Shown here piece by piece: positions 2,774-32,416 of a stretch of 64,000 nucleotides of DNA. A model generated the notes under the pieces. The model searched no databases, was not told where the DNA came from, and was given only the letters and a program-made list of their open reading frames with translations. Location of the stretch: sequence record PZ445527.1. The stretch is one strand, 5' to 3'. The position numbers and the translations under genes are program-made. The number at the start of each line of letters is the position of its first letter. The stretch's first letter is position 1. The stretch is from a phage.

Positions 2774-3446
2774 ATCTGCGATCCCTTATAATGTAATAAG
2801 TTTGCCGCCGATAGACTTTAAGATATACCCAATTTTTAAAGAGCGCGGCGGTAAACTTCCCGCCGTGTAGTTCGTCATTGCCGCCCTACGAGATAAATAA
2901 TAACAAATGCCAAAAATGGCGCAACCTTATTTTTGTAAAGAAACGTAAAGAAAGCAAATACTCGCACCGCGTCCGGCGATTGCCCAAGTTTAAAGGAAAC
3001 GGGCGCGCGGATACCATAAAATCCAGCAGATAGGCAAGTAATTTTTTCATTTATATTTGCCTTGCCCTACTTGATTTTTCTAGAATCCATCAGGTGACGA
3101 TAAACGGGCTATCCCTTTATGATGGGATACCTGAAAAATTTACCTCGTTGTAGGACGTTTTAGGCCGCTTATTTTCGAGTTAACAAATATTTAACAAAAG
3201 CAAAATTGAAAAATAGTTGTAAAAGGTATTGACTTTTAAAAATCAAGATTAAACGAGTTATTTTATAAAATTAATTAATTGACTTTTATTTGTTGTTGTG
3301 TACTAGAAAGATAGCAGACTAATAATTACTAGAATGATAATCATGCTGGTGGATTGTAACAGCCTGAACCATTAGCAGACTACTAATTCCGGAAAATCTC
3401 ATTAGCCAACTAACTATTTCCTGAGTTATAATATAAACATAAATTA

Positions 3447-3972: not shown

Positions 3973-4031
3973 GCCCCTACACCGTTTGAGGACGGTTGAA
4001 AATTTTCCCAAAAAAATTTTGGAGGCTTAAA

Positions 4032-4262
4032 ATGGTTGCGTATTCTTCTTCTGACGCTCTTTTCACTGGAAAAGGCTGGGTATCAAATCGCTGGATCATT
4101 CAAGAAATGGTGCGGGAGTTCGGCATTGCTAAAACTTACACTACCATTCAGGCGCTTTATGATAATGATCAAATCGATCAGCAAACGGCGGGCTTTTTGC
4201 TGGATACCCTGAAGGCGGAACATTGTACTAAAAAACAAGCCGCCAAAATTGCTTTAATGTAA
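4032..4262 (+). CDS. hypothetical protein (about 76 aa)
   Basis: ORF track frame 3996..4262; start moved to ATG 4032 preceded by GGAGG at 4021-4025. Confidence 0.5.
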   Translation: MVAYSSSDALFTGKGWVSNRWIIQEMVREFGIAKTYTTIQALYDNDQIDQQTAGFLLDTLKAEHCTKKQAAKIALM

Positions 4263-4270
4263 CTAATAAC

Positions 4271-4289
4271 GGGGCGTTATTTTCGCCCC
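4271..4289 (+). terminator. GC-rich stem-loop (ggggcg-ttatttt-cgcccc), possible terminator
   Basis: Perfect 6-bp GC stem right after stop at 4262; no clear U-tract. Confidence 0.35.
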
Positions 4290-4310
4290 ACTAACTAGGG
4301 GGGAATGAAA

Positions 4311-4457
4311 ATGGTTATTTTTCGATCAATTCTGGCGGGTATCTTGGGCGCTGTTTTATCACTTTTTGCCATAGCTTTCGGCGTTCACGCGGTTATTGTT
4401 GGCGCGGGTATCGCCGTTTTTTCTTATTTGCTGGGCTGCATGAGTAAAGGGGAATAA
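4311..4457 (+). CDS. small membrane peptide (48 aa)
   Basis: ATG at 4311 after gggggga; hydrophobic sequence MVIFRSILAGILGAVLSLFAIAFGVHAVIVGAGIAVFSYLLGC; below ORF track size cut-off. Confidence 0.45.
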   Translation: MVIFRSILAGILGAVLSLFAIAFGVHAVIVGAGIAVFSYLLGCMSKGE

Positions 4458-4459
4458 AA

Positions 4460-4672
4460 ATGATCCGCAACGTTTCTCTTGCTCGTTCGAAAGGCTTTAA
4501 GCTGGTGGACGTTAACACGTTCGAGCGGGAAGATTGTAAAATTGAATATATAGCACGGAATAAAAACGCCTTCCGTGTTACTGAAAAGAAATTCGATAAG
4601 CGCGGCAACGTGATCGCTGAAACGGTTAGACACTTTGCCACCTTTTACGCGGCCTTTCGTGGGGTACTATGA
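4460..4672 (+). CDS. hypothetical protein 70 aa
   Basis: ORF track; aagggga upstream; start overlaps previous stop. Confidence 0.5.
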   Translation: MIRNVSLARSKGFKLVDVNTFEREDCKIEYIARNKNAFRVTEKKFDKRGNVIAETVRHFATFYAAFRGVL

Positions 4673-23402: not shown

Positions 23403-23714
23403 TCACAGATCGGGGCGCTTATCTTCTAAACAGTCCGAGCTAATATCTTCTCCGAATCCTACGAAGCCATCAAATTCATTTGAAATATCCGTAATCATTG
23501 CTTCCATTTTCCTAATCTCCGAGGTTTTCATCCCTGCTTTACTATTCTTAAAGTGTTTGCGAGGATTCCCGCACATCCAACAAGAACAGATACAAGGAGT
23601 AGTAGTGATAATACCTAACCGTTTAGGGCTTTCTTCATGCGGGAAGACTGTCCAATATTTCTTGCGGTTGTTCTTCACACGTTGCCGGTGATGACGTCTT
23701 AATGCTCGATCCAC
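23403..23714 (-). CDS. Cys-rich hypothetical protein 103 aa
   Basis: ORF track; CICSCWMCGNP cluster. Confidence 0.5.
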   Translation of the reverse strand: MDRALRRHHRQRVKNNRKKYWTVFPHEESPKRLGIITTTPCICSCWMCGNPRKHFKNSKAGMKTSEIRKMEAMITDISNEFDGFVGFGEDISSDCLEDKRPDL

Positions 23715-23795
23715 ACATTTCTCCTAAAACTTGGGAGATAAATGGAGTTTGCTCGACTACCTTACGTAGTTCGTAGAAACCGTATCCAAGCCCCA

Positions 23796-24164
23796 TTACA
23801 TCGCCTGAGTAAATGTACGACTAATAACGTCGTTCTGCTGTTCACGCGTCAGTGCGTTAAAACGCACAGCATAACCAGAAACACGAATGGTTAGCTGAGG
23901 ATATTTTTCAGGATGTTTCTGAGCATCCAAAAGCTGGTCACGACTTAACACATTGACATTTAGGTGTTGACCCCCTTCAATTTGAGGGGCGACTTCCACC
24001 TTGACTTCACGAAAGGATTCGGGGTCAAAGTGAGGTGTGATACCTTCTAGATCCTCAACTAGAACTTTTTGTTTAAGTTCACCATCTTTAGAGTATAATT
24101 GAATAATCTGATTATTATGAACAATATTAATTACGCCAGATTTAAGATTTTGATATGCTTTCAT
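23796..24164 (-). CDS. grcA: autonomous glycyl radical cofactor (GrcA/YfiD-like)
   Basis: C-terminal half closely matches remembered E. coli GrcA blocks ([30 protein letters not shown]). Confidence 0.8.
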
Positions 24165-24529
24165 TAGATCTCCCTGATGTTAGAATTTGGCTCAGCTTTT
24201 TGTTAACCCAGAAGCAAGATAAAAACTGGAAGGCAGGCTTGCTTTTCTCTTAACCACTAGGCTACTTTTGGGTGCTAGCATTCCGGTGAGATTGATGGTC
24301 TCGGTTAAGAAGAAAAACACGGGACTTCTGTTTTAACGTCGTGCTCCCGGATTGATGCGACTACGTGATTGCTCGCGCTAAGACAATGGCTATCTAAAGT
24401 CTTAGCTTCTACATTTATACTCCTGGATAGCATGGAGTTGCAGTCTACTTCCTGCTGTCACGCCCGGTCATTTATAGAATGTGGACTCTCTTCTCAGCAA
24501 GTTCTGGCACTATGGCCTGATCTTCTGTT

Positions 24530-24603
24530 TGGTAGTTAGTAGTGGAATCGAACCAGGTTCCACGGTTTACAAGACCGTTGCATCGCCAGCAATGCTTTAA
24601 GAG
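24530..24603 (-). ncRNA. tRNA-like remnant: anticodon arm with UGU (Thr-like) plus imperfect T-arm, no matching 5' acceptor strand
   Basis: acggt-cttgtaa-accgt arm with U33/A37, then GGTTCGATTCC-like loop and CCA; acceptor pairing not found. Confidence 0.3.
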
Positions 24604-24996
24604 CTATCGTTGTCTTGTTGAAACTCTATTTCTGGCCCTATGCGTAGAGGTCATAGAGTGGCAGTTAGGGCAGAGAATCTTTAGATTTTCTGGAGAACAG
24701 TTAGTTGCATCTCCATCTATATGATCTACCTCAGTTAAAACTGCTCCGTCAATTGGATGTTTCCCATCCCAACCACATACTTCACAAGCAGTACCACGAG
24801 TATCCCACAGCCACTTCCTAACAAAAGGTTTTAATTGTGCAGCTTTACCAGTATAACCAGGTTCTTCACCTGCCAGCCACTTTAATACTTTTTGCTTTGT
24901 CTGGTACTCCTGCTGACAAGCAGGACCACAATACTTACCTGCGGAACCTCTACTTTTAGGTTTTGTGATTCCGCAATTTAAACAAGTAAACTCCAT
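24604..24996 (-). CDS. HNH endonuclease 130 aa
   Basis: HNH core (HIDGD...N...NL..LCPNCH) with zinc-finger cysteines. Confidence 0.75.
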   Translation of the reverse strand: MEFTCLNCGITKPKSRGSAGKYCGPACQQEYQTKQKVLKWLAGEEPGYTGKAAQLKPFVRKWLWDTRGTACEVCGWDGKHPIDGAVLTEVDHIDGDATNCSPENLKILCPNCHSMTSTHRARNRVSTRQR

Positions 24997-25160
24997 GTTG
25001 CTTCCTATTTCAACGGGATTTCTTTTTCAATAACAAGGGCTTATCAGTCATAACTGTCATTGCCATTTGTTGTAGAAATTCAAAGGTGAAGGCTACACGT
25101 TCTTCACCAATCTCTACTTCTACACGTTTCTTTTGTTTGTCAACCTTTAATTTTAGGCTA

Positions 25161-25382
25161 TCAGCCATCTTCGGATTCTCGTTGCTCGGCTACTGCTAGC
25201 CAGTCTGGTAAAAGAAACTTAGTACGAAACTCTTCATACGTTTCTTCTGGATAAAAGCTAAAACCCCCTTTCTCATCATTCAAGATAACAGAGCCGTCAG
25301 TTTGTTCATATGCTCGATATGTTTCTCCAATAATGATAACTCGCTTATCAGTACTTTTATTACGAAACTCAAAAACGTGCAT
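25161..25382 (-). CDS. hypothetical protein 73 aa
   Basis: ORF track. Confidence 0.45.
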   Translation of the reverse strand: MHVFEFRNKSTDKRVIIIGETYRAYEQTDGSVILNDEKGGFSFYPEETYEEFRTKFLLPDWLAVAEQRESEDG

Positions 25383-25398
25383 AACGTTTCCTTAAAGT

Positions 25399-25474
25399 TG
25401 GAGCGGCTAGAGGGAATCGAACCCTACTCAGCGAGGCTTGGAAGGCCTGCGACACAACCCGTGTGCTTAACCGC
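25399..25474 (-). tRNA. tRNA-Gly (anticodon UCC)
   Basis: Hand fold: 7-bp acceptor (one G-U), T-loop GGTTCGATTCC, anticodon loop CTTCCAA, encoded CCA. Confidence 0.55.
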
Positions 25475-25482
25475 TTATTGTT

Positions 25483-25560
25483 TGGCAGGGGATATTGGAT
25501 TTGAACCAATGATCTCGACTTCAAAGGCCGTTGTGCTAACCGTTACACTACTCTCCAATT
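25483..25560 (-). ncRNA. tRNA-like 3' fragment (canonical T-arm + acceptor 3' strand + CCA) without a pairing 5' acceptor strand
   Basis: ATTGG-TTCAAAT-CCAAT T-arm followed by atcccct-g-CCA; no complementary 5' strand within 100 nt. Confidence 0.3.
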
Positions 25561-25648
25561 GTTTGGCTGGAGTGCCTGATTCAATCCCAGGCACCTTCGG
25601 AGTCAGAGGCCGACGACTTGACAATTGATCTACACCTCAAGAATACTA

Positions 25649-25885
25649 TTAACTAGATGCTGGTTCTGCTGGCTGAGATACAGCAGGCTGTTCTAATGTA
25701 TCTGGTGCTGATACAGAGAAAAGAGCTTGTAATGCTGCAATATCACGCTCGTAAGTTTCAATACGAGTAGTAAGAGTATCTACCATCTGTTTATGATAGG
25801 CTAAGTTATTCTGAGATTCATCTCGAAGGGTTTGCAGTTCTGCAAGACGTGTTAACATAATTTCACTAATTAAAGCATTACTCAT
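25649..25885 (-). CDS. hypothetical coiled-coil protein 78 aa
   Basis: ORF track. Confidence 0.5.
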   Translation of the reverse strand: MSNALISEIMLTRLAELQTLRDESQNNLAYHKQMVDTLTTRIETYERDIAALQALFSVSAPDTLEQPAVSQPAEPASS

Positions 25886-26075
25886 TTGTTTCTCCTAAAT
25901 TTTCCGGTTCTTCTAAACGTTTGCCTTCATGATCTACTCGAATAACTCCGCATCCTTCGCAAATCACAACTGCACCATAACCTTCTTTGACTTCAGCTTC
26001 TGTAATCAAACCAGAAAGATCACCAGTATCTCTGCCCCACATATCAATGGAGCATTGTTTGCAGAAATCAGCCAT
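25878..26075 (-). CDS. small Cys-containing protein 65 aa
   Basis: ORF track; CKQC...CEGC. Confidence 0.45.
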   Translation of the reverse strand: MADFCKQCSIDMWGRDTGDLSGLITEAEVKEGYGAVVICEGCGVIRVDHEGKRLEEPENLGETNE

Positions 26076-26100
26076 ATTTTATTTCCTATTTAAGTTAATT

Positions 26101-26177
26101 TGGGGTGGCTAGTGGAACTCGAATCCACATAGGCCTGATTCACAATCAGGATCATTAACCAATTATGATATAGCCAC
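26101..26177 (-). tRNA. tRNA-His (anticodon GUG)
   Basis: Perfect 7-bp acceptor, D-stem TCAT/ATGA, anticodon stem CCTGA/TCAGG with loop TTGTGAA, T-arm GTGGA-TTCGAGT-TCCAC, encoded CCA. Confidence 0.75.
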
Positions 26178-26543
26178 AATTGAAAACTCGCAGGGTTAGC
26201 GAAACCATCCTCAATTAGCATGTTCTAGAATACTAATCAAGTTATCTCCTATTGCACGCAGCTCAAGACGAGTACGAATTTTCAATTGTGGCGGCTCTCA
26301 GAAACTCTTCTATTCTAGCCTCAGAAGCTTACCCCCGAACGCATGTCGGGAAAGTCTTTCCAAGCGCATCAAATAGCACCGTTACACTTTGAGCCATTGA
26401 TGTATCAAGGAATAGAAGGACTTGAACCTTCATGAGTTAGACCATTTAACTCAACCGCTTTTTAGGGTATATTTCTAGGAGTGGATGTTCCTAGTAAACC
26501 TATTCGGCAGTCCCGTCTACCAATTCCGGCATATTCCAAGATT

Positions 26544-26638
26544 TGGAGGTAGGTAAGGGGATCGAACCATTACACCGTATCACTACGGTCAACCGATTTC
26601 AAGTCGGAGTCCATCGCCAGCCGTTGGATTGACCTACC
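26544..26638 (-). tRNA. tRNA-Ser (anticodon UGA), type II
   Basis: 7-bp perfect acceptor, anticodon loop CTTGAAA, long variable arm (ACCGTA/TACGGT), T-loop TTCGATC, CCA. Confidence 0.7.
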
Positions 26639-26650
26639 TTATAAATTGTT

Positions 26651-26735
26651 TGGTGGGTTAGGAGAGACTCGAACTCTCACGCACTTAAGCAAGGGCTTCT
26701 AAGACCCTCGTGGCTACCAATTACACCACTAACCC
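26651..26735 (-). tRNA. tRNA-Leu (anticodon UAG), type II
   Basis: 7-bp perfect acceptor, anticodon loop CTTAGAA, long variable arm, T-arm GAGAG-TTCGAGT-CTCTC, CCA. Confidence 0.7.
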
Positions 26736-26741
26736 CTAATT

Positions 26742-26816
26742 TGGTGGACAGTAGGAGAGTCGAACTCCTCACTCCTGAGTGCAAGTCAGGTATTTTCCCA
26801 GATAAACTAACCGCCC
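26742..26816 (-). tRNA. tRNA-Ala (anticodon UGC)
   Basis: Acceptor GGGCGGT with G3:U70 wobble (Ala identity element), anticodon stem CCTGA/TCAGG loop CTTGCAC, T-arm AGGAG-TTCGACT-CTCCT, CCA. Confidence 0.7.
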
Positions 26817-27055
26817 AAATTCTTTAATTTACTAAGGCTATTAGCTCGGCGTAACTACAGCACCTTCGCTTCAAGCGGAAGGAACCGCGTCATCTCGCAA
26901 ACCCAATACACTATTCAGTTGCCGCTGAATCTAGTGGACTAATCTAGAACTTCTCCCGAGTCGTAGGGATCGTGCTTTTTGGCAGCCAGTCCTAGGTCGA
27001 GCTAATACCTTAGTGAATTATGATGAGGATTTCTCCCATATCAATTTATATAAAT

Positions 27056-27084
27056 ATTATAACAAGAAATTAATCATCAAGCAA
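27056..27084 (-). promoter_or_regulatory. sigma70 promoter (TTGCTT-17-TATAAT) driving the tRNA block 26101-26816
   Basis: Minus strand consensus upstream of untranslated spacer and tRNAs. Confidence 0.65.
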
Positions 27085-27158
27085 TTGAGTTTTTCTTGAA
27101 ATTGGTAGCGGGTTCCAGTACTGCCCTGGACTTACTTAGCTTATGAGACTAAGAAGAA
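27083..27158 (-). ncRNA. tRNA-like sequence with CAU anticodon, 1:72 mismatch and non-canonical T-loop
   Basis: Acceptor 6/7 bp with CCA, anticodon loop CTCATAA; T-loop GGCAGTA lacks the T-psi-C pattern. Confidence 0.3.
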
Positions 27159-27165
27159 CTCTATG

Positions 27166-27260
27166 CCTTCCACCCGCAATTGTTTGGTTATTCTAGACAG
27201 GATTCGAACCTGTTATCACTTGTGCGGACTTACGAGAACCATTCTTTCACTCGAATCGAA
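27166..27260 (-). ncRNA. region with two T-loop-like motifs (GGTTCGAATCC and CGTTCGATTCG) that does not fold into a canonical tRNA
   Basis: Hand folding failed to find anticodon arm/acceptor pairing. Confidence 0.25.
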
Positions 27261-27431
27261 CGAGCTTCTGCCCTAGCCAAGCTGGTTTCCCCATCAACCA
27301 CGCTAGAATGTTTGATTGTTTTCAGTGCAAGAGTCCGAGTCTTGGACACGACCGTTTCGCAAGTACATAGGCAGCTTATCATGAGTCAGCACTTCCGAAT
27401 TGCTAGCCCCGTGTTCTGCACTGAAATTTTA

Positions 27432-27779
27432 TTAGTTTAACCGTAAAGTATTATCTAATTCACCATTAATTGTTCGGCATTCCTCTGGAATTGCTGGTGT
27501 GGCCTTGTATTCCCACCACTCAGCACCATCATATTCCCCACGTTCTAGCCAAGTTCCGTCGGCAAACCATACATTACCATAAAGTAATTGTCCACCGTAT
27601 CCAGAATCATACTCAAAGTCTAGGTTATCAAGAAAATCCTCAATATCTTCTTCTGTATAGCCTAAAGGTAATACCCAAACTTTTTTATCCCCATAATACC
27701 CGAATTCTATTTTAATACACTTAATTTTAGAATTGGTATTTTTTAAGGCAAGTAACAACTCTTCTTTAGCATTACGCAT
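27432..27779 (-). CDS. hypothetical protein 115 aa
   Basis: ORF track. Confidence 0.55.
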   Translation of the reverse strand: MRNAKEELLLALKNTNSKIKCIKIEFGYYGDKKVWVLPLGYTEEDIEDFLDNLDFEYDSGYGGQLLYGNVWFADGTWLERGEYDGAEWWEYKATPAIPEECRTINGELDNTLRLN

Positions 27780-27804: not shown

Positions 27805-27881
27805 TGGCGCGACTGATGGGATTTGAACCCACATTCCCTCCCGTGATAGGGGAGTACCATTACCAAGCCAGCCACGGTCGC
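27805..27881 (-). tRNA. tRNA with unusual anticodon loop CTATCAC (anticodon AUC if folded conventionally)
   Basis: Acceptor 6/7 bp + CCA, T-arm GTGGG-TTCAAAT-CCCAT, anticodon stem CTCCC/GGGAG; A34 is atypical. Confidence 0.5.
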
Positions 27882-28178: not shown

Positions 28179-28260
28179 TGGCGGGCCGTGTAGGATTCGA
28201 ACCTACGTTGTCTTTCGACACGGATTAACAATCCGCCGCCAAACCGCTTGGCTAACGACC
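28179..28260 (-). tRNA. type II (long variable arm) tRNA with anticodon GUU
   Basis: 7-bp acceptor (one G-U), D-stem GCCA/TGGC, anticodon arm GCGGA-TTGTTAA-TCCGT, extra arm GTC-GAAA-GAC, T-arm GTAGG-TTCGAAT-CCTAC, CCA. Confidence 0.55.
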
Positions 28261-28416
28261 CTAAAAAATTTATATTGCTGACTAGGGTTTTCACCTAGAC
28301 GGAGTTAGCACCGTAGCGTGTAGCGGCATACCTCTCCAAACCGTGCCTCATCTTTCAATTACGGAGACAGTGTTCCTACGCGTGCCTGAATTGATTTAAC
28401 AATTCTTTCAGCAAAT

Positions 28417-28492
28417 TGGACGACCGCATGAGGATTGAACTCACATAAAAAGGATTTGCAATCCTTCGCCTAAGCCATTCAGCCAACGGTCG
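28417..28492 (-). tRNA. tRNA-Cys (anticodon GCA)
   Basis: 7-bp acceptor, anticodon stem AAGGA/TCCTT loop TTGCAAA, T-loop TTCAATC, CCA; 5' end overlaps stop of ORF 28479..28670. Confidence 0.65.
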
Positions 28493-29009: not shown

Positions 29010-29093
29010 TGGTGCATCGTGCTGGATTTGAACCACCAACCCCGAAGGGCACGGATTTACAGACCGCTGCAATAGCCATTCTGCCAACGATGC
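29010..29093 (-). tRNA. tRNA-Tyr (anticodon GUA), type II
   Basis: Perfect 7-bp acceptor, anticodon loop CTGTAAA, long variable arm (CCC-TTCG-GGG), T-loop TTCAAAT, CCA. Confidence 0.7.
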
Positions 29094-29978: not shown

Positions 29979-30053
29979 TGGTGGGTCGGAGGAGAATCTA
30001 ACTCCTACTCGTTAGCTTATGAGGCCACCGCTTTAACTTTAAGCTACCGACCC
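29979..30053 (-). tRNA. tRNA with CAU anticodon (Met or Ile-lysidine type) and atypical T-loop TTAGATT
   Basis: Perfect 7-bp acceptor GGGTCGG/CCGACCC, CCA, anticodon loop CTCATAA, T-stem AGGAG/CTCCT. Confidence 0.55.
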
Positions 30054-31839: not shown

Positions 31840-32343
31840 GTTTAAGTATTTTTAAGAACTCTCGTAAAAACTCTTAAAAATACAGACGATACCGGGAGAG
31901 TCATAAGTCTCACTCATTAAGTATTTCAAGACAAAATACAGTAACGTCTATTATTTTCCAGTTTAAGTCAGGGTGACTTAGTGGTTATGTCCTGCGGTAT
32001 ATTGAGGACTCGGTTAGGCTTGGGGTCATGACTTCCCGCCTTTTGCTGCTACTCAACAGGAGTTATCGCGAATTACCTGTGCTATTGTGCACCATTAGTG
32101 ACATCTCTCATGCCAGCATTTCCCACTTTGTGGATAGCTTGAAAAACTACTCCGATACGGAGAAAGAACTTCACTATCCTAGAATACCTTCTAAAGTTCT
32201 TCTTTAGCCTGGACATAGTTAAATCGTAATAAAACTATTCAGCAGACCGGTTGGTTAGTCTGGAACCAACTACCGCGTGGTTTAGGCAGTGCGCAACTAA
32301 CCTCGGAAGCTTTTACGTTAAAAGCACCAGTTATCCAGTTCTT

Positions 32344-32416
32344 ACCGACCGTAGGATTCGAACCTACATCTTCCACCAGTTACGGCTTGATAATACCAAT
32401 TATACTAGGACGGCAG
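32344..32416 (-). ncRNA. tRNA-like sequence (canonical T-arm GTAGG-TTCGAAT-CCTAC, no CCA, anticodon arm not resolved)
   Basis: Hand fold incomplete. Confidence 0.35.

Follow-up and report, generated by a model that had tools for sequence, protein, structure and literature searches.

The unusual tRNA-like elements in the tRNA cluster of this T5-like phage probably form a mixed set with four separate origins: two recombination hybrids, one decayed tRNA, one conserved variant, and ordinary tRNAs or stable-RNA homologs. The two hybrid genes would have arisen by recombination inside short segments common to tRNA genes. In the decayed tRNA-Gln(CUG), a hairpin-loop inversion would have flipped the T-loop, and point changes would have removed G19 and two stem pairs. 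The element carrying a CAU anticodon would be an alternative allele of the T5 'fMet' tRNA and not a remnant, while the other elements would be ordinary tRNAs or homologs of the stable RNAs annotated in T5. All these oddities belong to kinds that are already known, and no new type of system is involved.

The tRNA cluster and its mosaic structure

The window (the whole 64-kb stretch of DNA analysed) holds the tRNA cluster of a T5-like phage (Demerecviridae) with about 92-94% identity to its nearest database relatives. Sequence comparison matched it to T5-like phages and to their annotated tRNAs and stable RNAs. All tRNAs and tRNA-like elements of the window lie on the minus strand. The region would correspond to the early-gene tRNA cluster, a known hot spot for mosaic recombination and free-standing HNH genes. 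A sliding best-match map showed that the best-matching relative changes every 100-400 bp across the region, and published T5-like relatives show the same fine-scale mosaicism among themselves. The background rate of private changes in the region is 0.65%.

Canonical tRNAs were recognised with the Rfam RF00005 covariance model (gathering score of 29 bits) and with ARAGORN at default settings. Folding was carried out with RNAfold, pairing was checked pair by pair on Infernal alignments, and junctions were searched for in phage records, IMG/VR and JGI metagenomes. The original prediction had suggested that several of the elements may be tRNA remnants left by homing-endonuclease insertions, split tRNAs or processing signals, unless automated tools should resolve them as ordinary tRNAs. 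The remnant reading holds for the Thr/Met1 deletion hybrid at 24530-24604, and also for the decayed tRNA-Gln(CUG) at 25564-25639, but not for the elements at 27103-27178 and 29979-30053. The tools returned an ordinary tRNA outright for 29979-30053, and in part for 25483-25557. Parentage, crossover positions, uniqueness in the searched databases and the loss or retention of pairing are direct observations for each hybrid; 'dead', 'weak' and 'maintained', as used below for the functional consequences of the odd elements, are our reading of the sequences.

A Thr/Met1 hybrid at the edge of an HNH cassette

The hybrid pseudo-tRNA Thr(UGU)/Met1 (24530-24604, minus strand) was resolved by comparison with the alleles of relatives, its Rfam score and its fold. 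Nucleotides 1-49 (24556-24604) are those of the HdH2-type tRNA-Thr(UGU), and nucleotides 50-75 (24530-24555) come from the 3′ end of an S124/L027-type tRNA-Met1. The two parts are joined at an 11-nt T-loop microhomology, GGTTCGATTCC, at 24544-24554: the element matches the HdH2 tRNA-Thr base for base as far as the T-loop, and continues beyond it as the Met1 3′ end with its native downstream flank ACCAAACAGAAGAT. Two sampled parents and a single crossover account for every base of the hybrid. The junction was not found in phage records, IMG/VR or JGI metagenomes. In all relatives the two halves are separated by ~520-720 bp. A deletion of roughly 0.5-0.7 kb would have fused tRNA-Thr nucleotides 1-49 to the Met1 3′ end at the microhomology, and would have taken with it most of Met1, the whole tRNA-Ile(GAU), an ORF and the Thr 3′ end.

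The T-loop, ACCA end, UGU anticodon arm, unpaired acceptor strand and adjacency to an HNH gene that had been predicted for 24530-24603 were all borne out. Only 2 of the 7 acceptor-helix positions can pair, and the T-loop alone conforms to the canonical pattern (T54-Psi55-C56-R57-A58). The element scores 24.5 bits, below the Rfam gathering score, and is not called by ARAGORN at default settings. RNAfold gave no cloverleaf, with a folding energy of -15 kcal/mol compared to -26.5 kcal/mol for the intact HdH2 tRNA-Thr. With no acceptor helix, its product is most likely a dead pseudo-tRNA.

The adjacent gene encodes a predicted free-standing HNH endonuclease of 130 aa (24604-24996, minus strand; Pfam HNH and HNH_3), and the final G of its TAG stop codon is nucleotide 1 of the hybrid tRNA. 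The protein is 99% identical to the HdH2 endonuclease. The gene is rare and sporadic, with ≥95% identity confined to 9 phage records. HdH2 and MET_P1 have it, and T5, K16, K20 and bux lack it at the same site. As an intact ORF with a nuclease domain whose presence varies among otherwise collinear relatives, it conforms to a free-standing homing endonuclease gene. Moreover, the flanking sequence is co-inherited, as in a co-conversion tract: a Thr allele with compensated anticodon-stem changes occurs in all three HNH-bearing genomes and in none of about 21 HNH-less ones. The HdH2-like block (97-100% identity) is confined to 24544 to ~25036, with its edges at 24544-24554 and 25011-25036. The right-hand crossover zone (25011-25036) contains a 25-nt stretch, tatttcaacgggatttctttttcaa, identical in all relatives; the multiple alignment and the best-match map show that the window tracks HdH2 to the left of it and K20/K16 to the right. 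The left edge coincides exactly with the Thr/Met junction.

Insertion of the HNH gene was considered as the event that broke the tRNA and was ruled out, because the same gene adjoins an intact tRNA-Thr in HdH2 and MET_P1; the lesion is on the 3′ side of the hybrid, far from the HNH gene. The proposal of a remnant left by homing-endonuclease insertion thus fails as an insertion into the tRNA and survives indirectly, in a junction that is the edge of the HNH block. The position of this junction fits a homing or repair event resolved ectopically, and gain of the HNH cassette by break repair would have triggered the Thr/Met deletion. The link between the two events is circumstantial, and the breakpoint beside the HNH gene could be a coincidence, given mosaicism at 100-400 bp. 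The T5 tRNA cluster contains the HNH genes F-TflI, II and IV (PMC2330249), T5-like genomes differ from one another mainly through homing nucleases (PMC10644984), and boundaries of genetic exchange between phages carry nuclease genes (PMC10448857).

A hybrid tRNA-Gln(UUG) and a decayed tRNA-Gln(CUG)

Comparison of alleles identified the tRNA-Gln(UUG) gene (25483-25557, minus strand) as a single-crossover hybrid. Nucleotides 1-37 are of the K20/L035 type and nucleotides 28-75 of the T5 type. The crossover lies within CGGCCUUUGA, a 10-nt overlap running from the 5′ strand of the anticodon stem into the anticodon loop. Each half matches a single allele class at 100% identity; the whole gene was seen in 0 of 35 loci, and its junction was not found in IMG/VR. 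Crossover of two diverged tRNA-Gln(UUG) alleles would have joined acceptor strands with no shared co-evolution. Acceptor pairing had been predicted to be absent from this element (given as 25483-25560). The gene is nevertheless called by both ARAGORN and Rfam (44.6 bits, above the gathering score), and has a canonical T-loop and a D-loop with G18-G19. The Infernal alignment revealed non-standard pairs at 1:72, 4:69, 7:66 and 27:43, with 4 of the 7 acceptor positions paired and three unpaired; the acceptor helix is therefore weakened but still there. The folding energy (z = +0.83) is no better than that of shuffled sequences. The known GlnRS identity elements G2:C71, G3:C70, G73 and the UUG anticodon are retained, and the hybrid is probably still a weak tRNA.

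The neighbouring tRNA-Gln(CUG) (25564-25639, minus strand) was recognised as decayed from its Rfam score, its private changes and comparison of its T-arm. Its T-loop is inverted (GAUUGAA), G19 is lost (G19U), and pairs 3:70 and 13:22 are broken. It scores 20.0 bits, under the gathering score, with 6 of 7 acceptor positions paired, one G·U included. When its T-arm was compared with the K20 allele, 8 of 17 positions were mismatched in direct orientation and 2 of 17 as the reverse complement. The gene is canonical in 26/26 relatives, and the present form was not found in IMG/VR or metagenomes. The best relative is only 86-88% identical, compared to 98-100% in the flanks, and at least seven private changes, against the 0.65% background, make the excess a local one. 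This divergence is ~14 times the background and beyond neutral decay alone, so that part of it may stem from an unsampled allele.

A conserved CAU element without a canonical elbow

A 76-nt cloverleaf at 27103-27178 (minus strand) was identified by its pairing and by locus comparison as an allele, here termed F-type, of the T5 'fMet' tRNA. The predicted CAU anticodon, 1:72 mismatch (U1·U72) and non-canonical T-loop (GGCAGUA) were confirmed, but the coordinates given (27083-27158) were off by 20 nt. Together with A73, the element has the D-loop CAUAGAGU; neither this loop nor the T-loop shows the canonical T-loop and G18-G19 nucleotides. The acceptor helix is paired at 6 of 7 positions, the mismatch at 1:72 being common to the T5 allele. 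Compared with T5 tRNA-fMet, the acceptor stem and anticodon arm are shared, whereas the D and T arms are entirely different and still pair. Six stem pairs differ from the T5 type on both sides with pairing kept, a compensatory argument that compares two allele classes only, as the near-identical F-type sequences give no covariation within the type.

F-type and T5-type alleles occupy the same locus and are mutually exclusive (5 and 24 sampled loci, respectively). The F type replaces the 'fMet' tRNA of T5 in about 60 relatives; a 101-nt query spanning it (27090-27190) matched 57 phage records at ≥95% identity. The sequence is 100% identical in DT57C and phA11, and nearly invariant in ~57 genomes while the flanks vary. 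The lone variant seen, A11G, still pairs with U24. In DT57C and phA11, the two F-type records whose annotation was viewed, the element is not annotated, and it has no Rfam tRNA match even at E ≤ 10.

The F type resembles the bacterial initiator tRNA-fMet in its CAU anticodon, 1:72 mismatch, G2:C71, C3:G70, G4:C69, A73 and A11:U24. Unlike the bacterial tRNA, it does not have three consecutive G:C pairs in the anticodon stem (UUAGU/GCUAA; CUAGU/GCUAG in the T5 allele), carries GGCAGUA in place of a TPsiCRA T-loop, lacks G19, U8 and A14, and is not recognised by the generic tRNA covariance model. The preserved acceptor stem and anticodon arm, together with D and T arms that differ but still pair, point to a structurally maintained cloverleaf RNA without the canonical elbow nucleotides of the D-loop and T-loop. 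Tentatively, with an intact cloverleaf and with the methionine and initiator identity elements of its acceptor and anticodon arms intact, it might act as a working initiator-like tRNA or as a mimic of a tRNA that replaces the canonical 'fMet' tRNA in ~60 sequenced T5-like genomes, with an elbow that is deliberately non-canonical, possibly as an escape from an elbow-recognising host enzyme or defence nuclease.

The element could also simply be a decayed pseudogene of the T5 'fMet' tRNA, a possibility that we regard as doubtful. The failure of the Rfam model, the loss of the elbow-building U8, A14, G19, T54, Psi55 and A58, and a D-stem that is not part of the RNAfold minimum-energy structure would all be expected of such a pseudogene. 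However, 9 of 9 D- and T-stem pairs are kept though essentially every base of these arms differs from the T5 type, and the chance of keeping nine pairs is ~(6/16)^9 = 1.5e-4. The unchanged acceptor stem and anticodon arm, the near-invariance between variable flanks and the pairing retained by the A11G variant also argue against decay, as do the similar T-loops of a few unrelated phage initiator-like tRNAs (e.g. GUCGGUA in L097).

Ordinary tRNAs and homologs of T5 stable RNAs

The tRNA at 29979-30053 (minus strand) is an ordinary tRNA-Ile2(CAU). It obtains the top Rfam tRNA score in the region (60.6 bits, above the gathering score) and matches the tRNA-Ile(CAU) annotated in phage DT57C at 100% identity; ARAGORN labels it Met. 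The unusual T-loop noted in the original prediction (TTAGATT in the DNA) is present, but as UUAGAUU it departs from the canonical loop only in C56, the D-loop has G18-G19, and the tRNA is not an odd one.

The original prediction overlooked the decayed tRNA-Gln(CUG), a tRNA-Gly, and homologs of RNA1 and RNA2. The tRNA-Gly(UCC) (25399-25474, minus strand) is of the T5 type, atypical but genuine: its sequence is that of T5 tRNA-Gly1 and of at least 14 relatives (100% identity), and its minimum-energy fold is a cloverleaf. ARAGORN skips it at default settings. According to the T5 record (NC_005859), a derivative of the T5-type tRNA-Gly with a swapped anticodon suppresses amber codons effectively.

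Homologs of the T5 stable RNAs RNAIII, RNAI and RNA1 lie at 26179-26540 (minus strand), assigned by synteny and identity with T5: window positions 25903-26544 are 96% identical to positions 4009-4649 of the T5 locus, where these RNAs are annotated as misc_RNAs. The RNA1 homolog (~26397-26540) contains a weak tRNA-like match at 26407-26476 (22.2 bits). The homolog of RNA2 (27187-27310, minus strand; misc_RNA rna2 in T5) ends in ACCA and combines an acceptor-like helix of 7 bp with two hairpins resembling T-arms. Its identity in 28 relatives is 97-98%, and Rfam gives its 3′ part 20.6 bits. The T5 record calls RNA2 a 'tRNA-like stable RNA with unknown functions'. The homologs of rna1 and rna2 are 93-98% identical to their T5 counterparts and in the same order.

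Comparison with known systems

The cluster resembles that of T5 (NC_005859) in gene order, strand and most sequences (82-100% identity), and in the tRNA-like stable RNAs found at the same positions; those of T5 are RNA1, RNA2, RNA3, RNAI, RNAIII, RNAIV and RNA2H. Both clusters have a dispensable, defective Gln(CUG) gene adjoining HNH genes, tRNA-Gln2(CUG) of T5 being a pseudogene overlapped by the HNH gene hegD. In contrast to T5, this genome lacks eight T5 tRNAs and has an HNH gene that is missing from this site in T5, and its two hybrid genes and inverted T-loop were seen in no other record searched.

Like the free-standing homing endonucleases of T5 (F-TflI, II and IV, HNH) and T4 (SegB, GIY-YIG), the HNH ORF sits between a tRNA and a small ORF, is sporadic among close relatives and travels with flanking sequence. 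Its stop codon lies against the 5′ end of a tRNA, in the manner of segB and tRNA-Arg in T4 (PMC2330249). However, a protein search showed that the predicted enzyme is none of the named F-Tfl enzymes, and that its closest relatives outside T5-like phages are in jumbo and T4-like phages.

In the present cluster the crossovers are placed in the parts of a tRNA that are conserved most, namely the T-loop and the anticodon loop, and the Gln(CUG) hairpin has a reverse-complemented loop on an unaltered stem. Both kinds of event are known, as recombination of tRNA genes within conserved segments and as small inversions of hairpin loops between inverted repeats. What differs here is the base-level detail, with both parents among the sampled sequences, and the position beside a mobile nuclease gene.

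Alternative explanations for the hybrid and decayed elements

The hybrid and decayed elements could instead be kept as RNA processing signals or tRNA-like stable RNAs, which we consider unlikely. They might serve RNase P, RNase Z or RNase E as entry sites and in this way shape the early polycistronic transcript, and the HNH mRNA, for example, might be controlled through cleavage at its stop codon. T5 accumulates the tRNA-like stable RNAs RNA1, RNA2 and RNA3 from the same cluster, the window retains RNA1 and RNA2 at 96-98% identity, and the HNH stop codon overlaps hybrid tRNA nucleotide 1. Support also comes from T4, where SegB expression has been proposed to be limited by tRNA-maturation cleavage that separates the last codon from its stop codon, and from a similar transcript-processing role proposed for the T5 HNH genes (PMC2330249). 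However, the acceptor helix needed by RNase P is lost in the Thr/Met hybrid, whose orphan 3′ strand has no partner within 470 nt upstream. Moreover, the hybrid forms are unique to this genome, and therefore nothing shows selection for them.

That the odd junctions are artefacts, arising from chimeric assembly of at least two co-infecting T5-like phages or from sequencing errors, is improbable. The genome is absent from the searched collections, its best-matching relative switches every 100-400 bp, and three unique elements fall within ~1.1 kb. Yet the identities at the junctions (10 and 11 nt) are too short for a strain switch by a k-mer assembler, each half of a hybrid matches a real allele at 100% without indels, and the flanking ORFs are all intact, the 130-aa HNH gene included. 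A private-change rate as low as 0.65% elsewhere, and the equally fine mosaicism of the published relatives themselves, also speak against an artefact. The suggestion of split or permuted tRNAs joined in trans is barely credible. One element does have good 5′ three-quarters, including the anticodon arm, and a non-matching 3′ end, but this 3′ end is fully accounted for by Met1 sequence and native downstream flank. The complementary halves proposed for split tRNAs (the Thr 3′ end at ≤4 mismatches in 22 nt, the Met1 5′ part and either tRNA-Ile half) were absent from the 64-kb window.

Implications

The region offers examples, at base resolution, of the erosion of a phage tRNA cluster. The few nucleotides common to all tRNAs in the T-loop and anticodon loop serve as portable homology, at which deletions and crossovers between alleles occur. 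Such events yield genes whose helices no longer match, and one of the junctions is the edge of a mobile HNH cassette. Automated tRNA counts in T5-like phages are wrong in both directions: the tRNA-Gly and the F-type CAU RNA are missed, and the compromised Gln hybrid is accepted. These errors bear on work on phage tRNAs as a counter-defence against host tRNA-cleaving systems, and the F-type allele lends itself to inexpensive, concrete tests.

The tRNA cluster and its relatives

A 3.1-kb region of the cluster is matched at 80-99% identity by several hundred T5-like phages (Demerecviridae, Markadamsvirinae). The highest coverage of this region by any single record is 73%, and the best relatives of another 24-kb stretch in the window reach just 92-94% identity. 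The DNA therefore comes from a T5-like phage that is not in the collections searched. In this cluster the T5 record annotates about 25 tRNA genes, four HNH endonuclease genes, a tRNA-Gln2(CUG) pseudogene and stable RNAs, with RNA1, RNA2 and RNA3 described as 'tRNA-like stable RNA with unknown functions'. Homologs of RNA2 and RNA1 are found here at 27187-27310 and at about 26397-26540, respectively. Default ARAGORN called 12 tRNA genes in the window; Rfam recovered these 12 and one more above threshold, with several further sub-threshold matches. The tRNA genes are all encoded by the minus strand. Relaxed thresholds or the intron mode of ARAGORN gave many spurious calls on both strands, and this output was kept for fold display only. 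A promoter and terminator scan of 23700-27500 returned a number of sites not above that of shuffled sequence.

A tRNA-Thr/tRNA-Met hybrid next to an HNH gene

The element at 24530-24604 (minus strand) is a hybrid whose nt 1-49 derive from tRNA-Thr and whose nt 50 onward derive from Met1, the first tRNA-Met of the cluster. The original description is correct: the anticodon arm has UGU, a T-loop is present and the sequence ends in ACCA. The acceptor pairs at only 2 of 7 positions. No cloverleaf fold was obtained, and with 24.5 bits the element does not reach the Rfam gathering score of 29 bits. Nucleotides 1-49 match tRNA-Thr(UGU) of the T5-like phage HdH2 without a difference, and the remainder corresponds to the 3′ end of Met1 followed by the native downstream flank of Met1. 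In Salmonella phage S124, the Met1 allele is an exact match to this 3′ part, including the T-loop GGTTCGATTCC, which is also present in tRNA-Thr. Given the HdH2 Thr and S124 Met1 matches, a single crossover within 11 identical nucleotides explains every base of the hybrid. Among the relatives, about 520-720 bp always separate the two halves, an interval that contains most of Met1, tRNA-Ile(GAU), an ORF, a promoter (P11 in the T5 annotation) and the 3′ end of tRNA-Thr. The missing pieces of this interval were not found anywhere in the 64-kb window, nor was an upstream partner for the orphan 3′ strand. These results therefore give no support to a split tRNA. In 50,697 phage records the junction was not detected, nor did exact-pattern scans find it in IMG/VR or in JGI metagenomes.

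The adjacent ORF (24604-24996) matches the HNH domain, and the G of its TAG stop doubles as nt 1 of the hybrid tRNA. The gene is rare, with 9 records at ≥95% identity, and is missing at this site in T5, K16, K20 and bux. HdH2 and MET_P1 carry the same gene (99% identity) beside an intact tRNA-Thr, so the break in the tRNA was not caused by insertion of this gene. The original suggestion of remnants left by homing endonucleases is supported as regards the remnants; the HNH gene is linked to them only indirectly.

In a sliding best-match map, the HdH2-like stretch (97-100%) is limited to 24544 to about 25036. Its left edge is the Thr/Met T-loop junction and its right edge is a 25-nt stretch with the same sequence in all relatives. 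The tRNA-Thr allele linked to the HNH gene (24556-24604 here; 2987-3061 in locus L001; 3258-3332 in locus L002) stands apart through a block of compensated changes in the anticodon stem, which reads ACGGU/ACCGU instead of the GUUGC/GCAUC of all relatives without the HNH gene. This block could represent a nuclease target site made immune. HNH genes F-TflI, II and IV are located in the T5 tRNA cluster (PMC2330249), homing nucleases are the main source of differences between T5-like genomes (PMC2330249; PMC10644984), and nuclease genes are found at boundaries of genetic exchange between phages (PMC10448857). We infer that a homing cassette was acquired by break repair, one end being resolved ectopically in the paralogous T-loop; the block edges and the linked Thr allele form the pattern expected from such an event. 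Between a glycyl-radical cofactor gene and the tRNA remnant lies a non-coding stretch of about 350 bp (24174-24529) that matches only Epseptimavirus-like relatives (bux, S124, HildyBeyeler), and neither T5 nor HdH2.

Two altered tRNA-Gln genes

The sequence at 25483-25557 (minus strand) had been described as lacking a pairing 5′ acceptor strand. This was overstated, as the tools call it tRNA-Gln(UUG) with 44.6 bits, but non-standard pairs are indeed present. The Infernal alignment places such pairs at 1:72, 4:69, 7:66 and 27:43, and the fold is no more stable than that of shuffled sequence. Nucleotides 1-37 show 100% identity to the allele class of K20 and loci L033-L035, and nucleotides 28-75 to that of T5, the two matches overlapping in CGGCCUUUGA. 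The whole hybrid gene was found in none of 35 loci, and its junction was not found by an exact-pattern scan of IMG/VR. Recombination between alleles is again the cause: U1·U72 is already present in the T5 allele, and the mismatches 4:69, 7:66 and 27:43 stem from the joining of strands that had not co-evolved.

A decayed tRNA-Gln(CUG) homolog (25564-25639, minus strand; 20 bits), absent from the original list, was also identified. Its best relative shows 86-88% identity, against up to 98-100% for the flanks, and it carries at least seven changes private to this genome, compared with a regional rate of 0.65%. Conserved features are altered (G19U, mismatches A3·C70 and C13·A22, and the entire T-loop). 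Compared with the K20 allele, the 17-nt T-arm shows 8 differences in direct orientation and only 2 as the reverse complement, which indicates a hairpin-loop inversion followed by two C-to-U changes. A search of the window for an ectopic donor of this T-arm found none. The alleles of relatives are canonical in 26 of 26 cases; T5's own copy is a pseudogene, consistent with a dispensable Gln(CUG) gene. Exact-pattern scans of IMG/VR and of JGI metagenomes gave no match to the Gln(CUG) junction.

Odd junctions of this kind could in principle be produced during assembly. Such an origin is improbable, since the identical stretches at the junctions span only 10 and 11 nt and no ORF is disrupted.

An alternative allele at the T5 fMet locus

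The non-canonical element with a CAU anticodon is real, although it had been placed 20 nt too low, at 27083-27158; its true span is 27103-27178 (minus strand). This 76-nt sequence, here called F-type, can be drawn as a regular cloverleaf. The acceptor stem UGCGGGU/ACCCGCU, with U1·U72, is followed by A73 and CCA; the D-stem AAGG/UCUU encloses the D-loop CAUAGAGU; the anticodon arm is UUAGU-CUCAUAA-GCUAA, the variable loop has 5 nt, and the T-stem UCCAG/CUGGA closes the T-loop GGCAGUA. The acceptor stem and anticodon arm are shared with the tRNA annotated in T5 as 'initiator tRNA fMet', which occupies the same locus. The T5-type and F-type alleles (24 and 5 sampled loci, respectively) never occur together in one genome. 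As the MAFFT alignment put the T-arms of the two alleles out of register, the stems were compared by hand. The D and T arms are entirely unlike those of T5-type in sequence, yet the stem pairs are kept in 9 of 9 cases, 6 of them with changes on both sides. The sole variant seen, A11G, retains pairing with U24.

A 101-nt query spanning the element (27090-27190) is matched at ≥95% identity by 57 phage records, and the 76-nt element is 100% identical in DT57C and phA11, whose records do not annotate it. F-type genomes also lack T5.065, tRNA-Lys and tRNA-Val, and the F-type discriminator, CCA and 3′ flank are those of tRNA-Val. A deletion hybrid with tRNA-Val or tRNA-Lys was considered as a source of the D and T arms and rejected: the arms match nothing, and the likeness to Val is confined to the discriminator, CCA and 3′ flank.

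The anticodon arm UAGUCUCAUAAGCUA (27134-27148) lacks the three G:C pairs of initiator tRNAs and recurs in the initiator-like tRNA genes of more than 90 viral contigs that are unrelated (IMG/VR loci L036-L155). Five of these tRNAs, F-type included, have non-canonical T-loops (e.g. GUCGGUA) that keep C56, R57 and the terminal A. The 15-mer scan with this arm retrieved mostly unrelated phage Met tRNAs and is used as context only, not as covariation for F-type. The Rfam tRNA model does not detect F-type, and a plain pseudogene is a possible but less likely reading. Judging from its sequence, the element is not a remnant of anything, and we conclude that it is probably a structurally maintained RNA.

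Other tRNA genes of the cluster

The TTAGATT-containing sequence at 29979-30053 (minus strand), listed as an oddity, is an ordinary tRNA-Ile(CAU), with 60.6 bits and identity to that of DT57C. A tRNA-Gly at 25399-25474 (minus strand), missed by default ARAGORN, is identical to T5 tRNA-Gly1; according to the T5 record, an anticodon-swapped derivative of tRNA-Gly1 is an effective amber suppressor. The tRNA-Tyr at 29010-29093 was considered as a Tyr/Phe hybrid and found to be an intact K20-type allele. In the tRNA-Asn (28179-28261, minus strand; 83 nt) the variable arm is unusually long for this tRNA type, and the HdH2 tRNA-Asn is annotated at equal length.

Private changes occur in several other genes. 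The tRNA-Asp (27805-27881, minus strand) carries G8U, G34A and G67A, each present in 0 of 28 relatives; G34A gives anticodon AUC in place of GUC, and G67A a C6·A67 mismatch. Inside the homolog of the T5 stable RNA 'RNAX', 32343-32414 (minus strand) scores 35.5 bits as a tRNA, above the Rfam gathering score; it has no CCA end, and a private A5U breaks pair 5:68. Further private changes affect the T-loop of tRNA-His (26118), three sites of tRNA-Ser(UGA) (26569-26639) and two adjacent T-loop sites of tRNA-Cys (28433-28434). The private-change rate in tRNA genes (about 1.2%) is no lower than the regional 0.65%, which suggests that purifying selection on these tRNAs is weak. Between 24000 and 32500, tRNA-Ile1, Ser2(GGA), Val, Lys, Pro, Phe, Trp and Glu of T5 are missing, and, Met1 being destroyed, the only methionine-type tRNA-like gene left is that of the F-type CAU RNA.

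The original observation is confirmed in part: the four sequences singled out comprise one ordinary tRNA, one compromised yet recognisable tRNA and two truly non-canonical elements. Everything here belongs to kinds that are already known. Pseudogenes of phage tRNAs, mosaicism associated with homing nucleases and the tRNA-like RNAs of T5 have all been established before, and the hybrids resolved to the base, like the F-type allele that had gone unannotated, add modest new instances.
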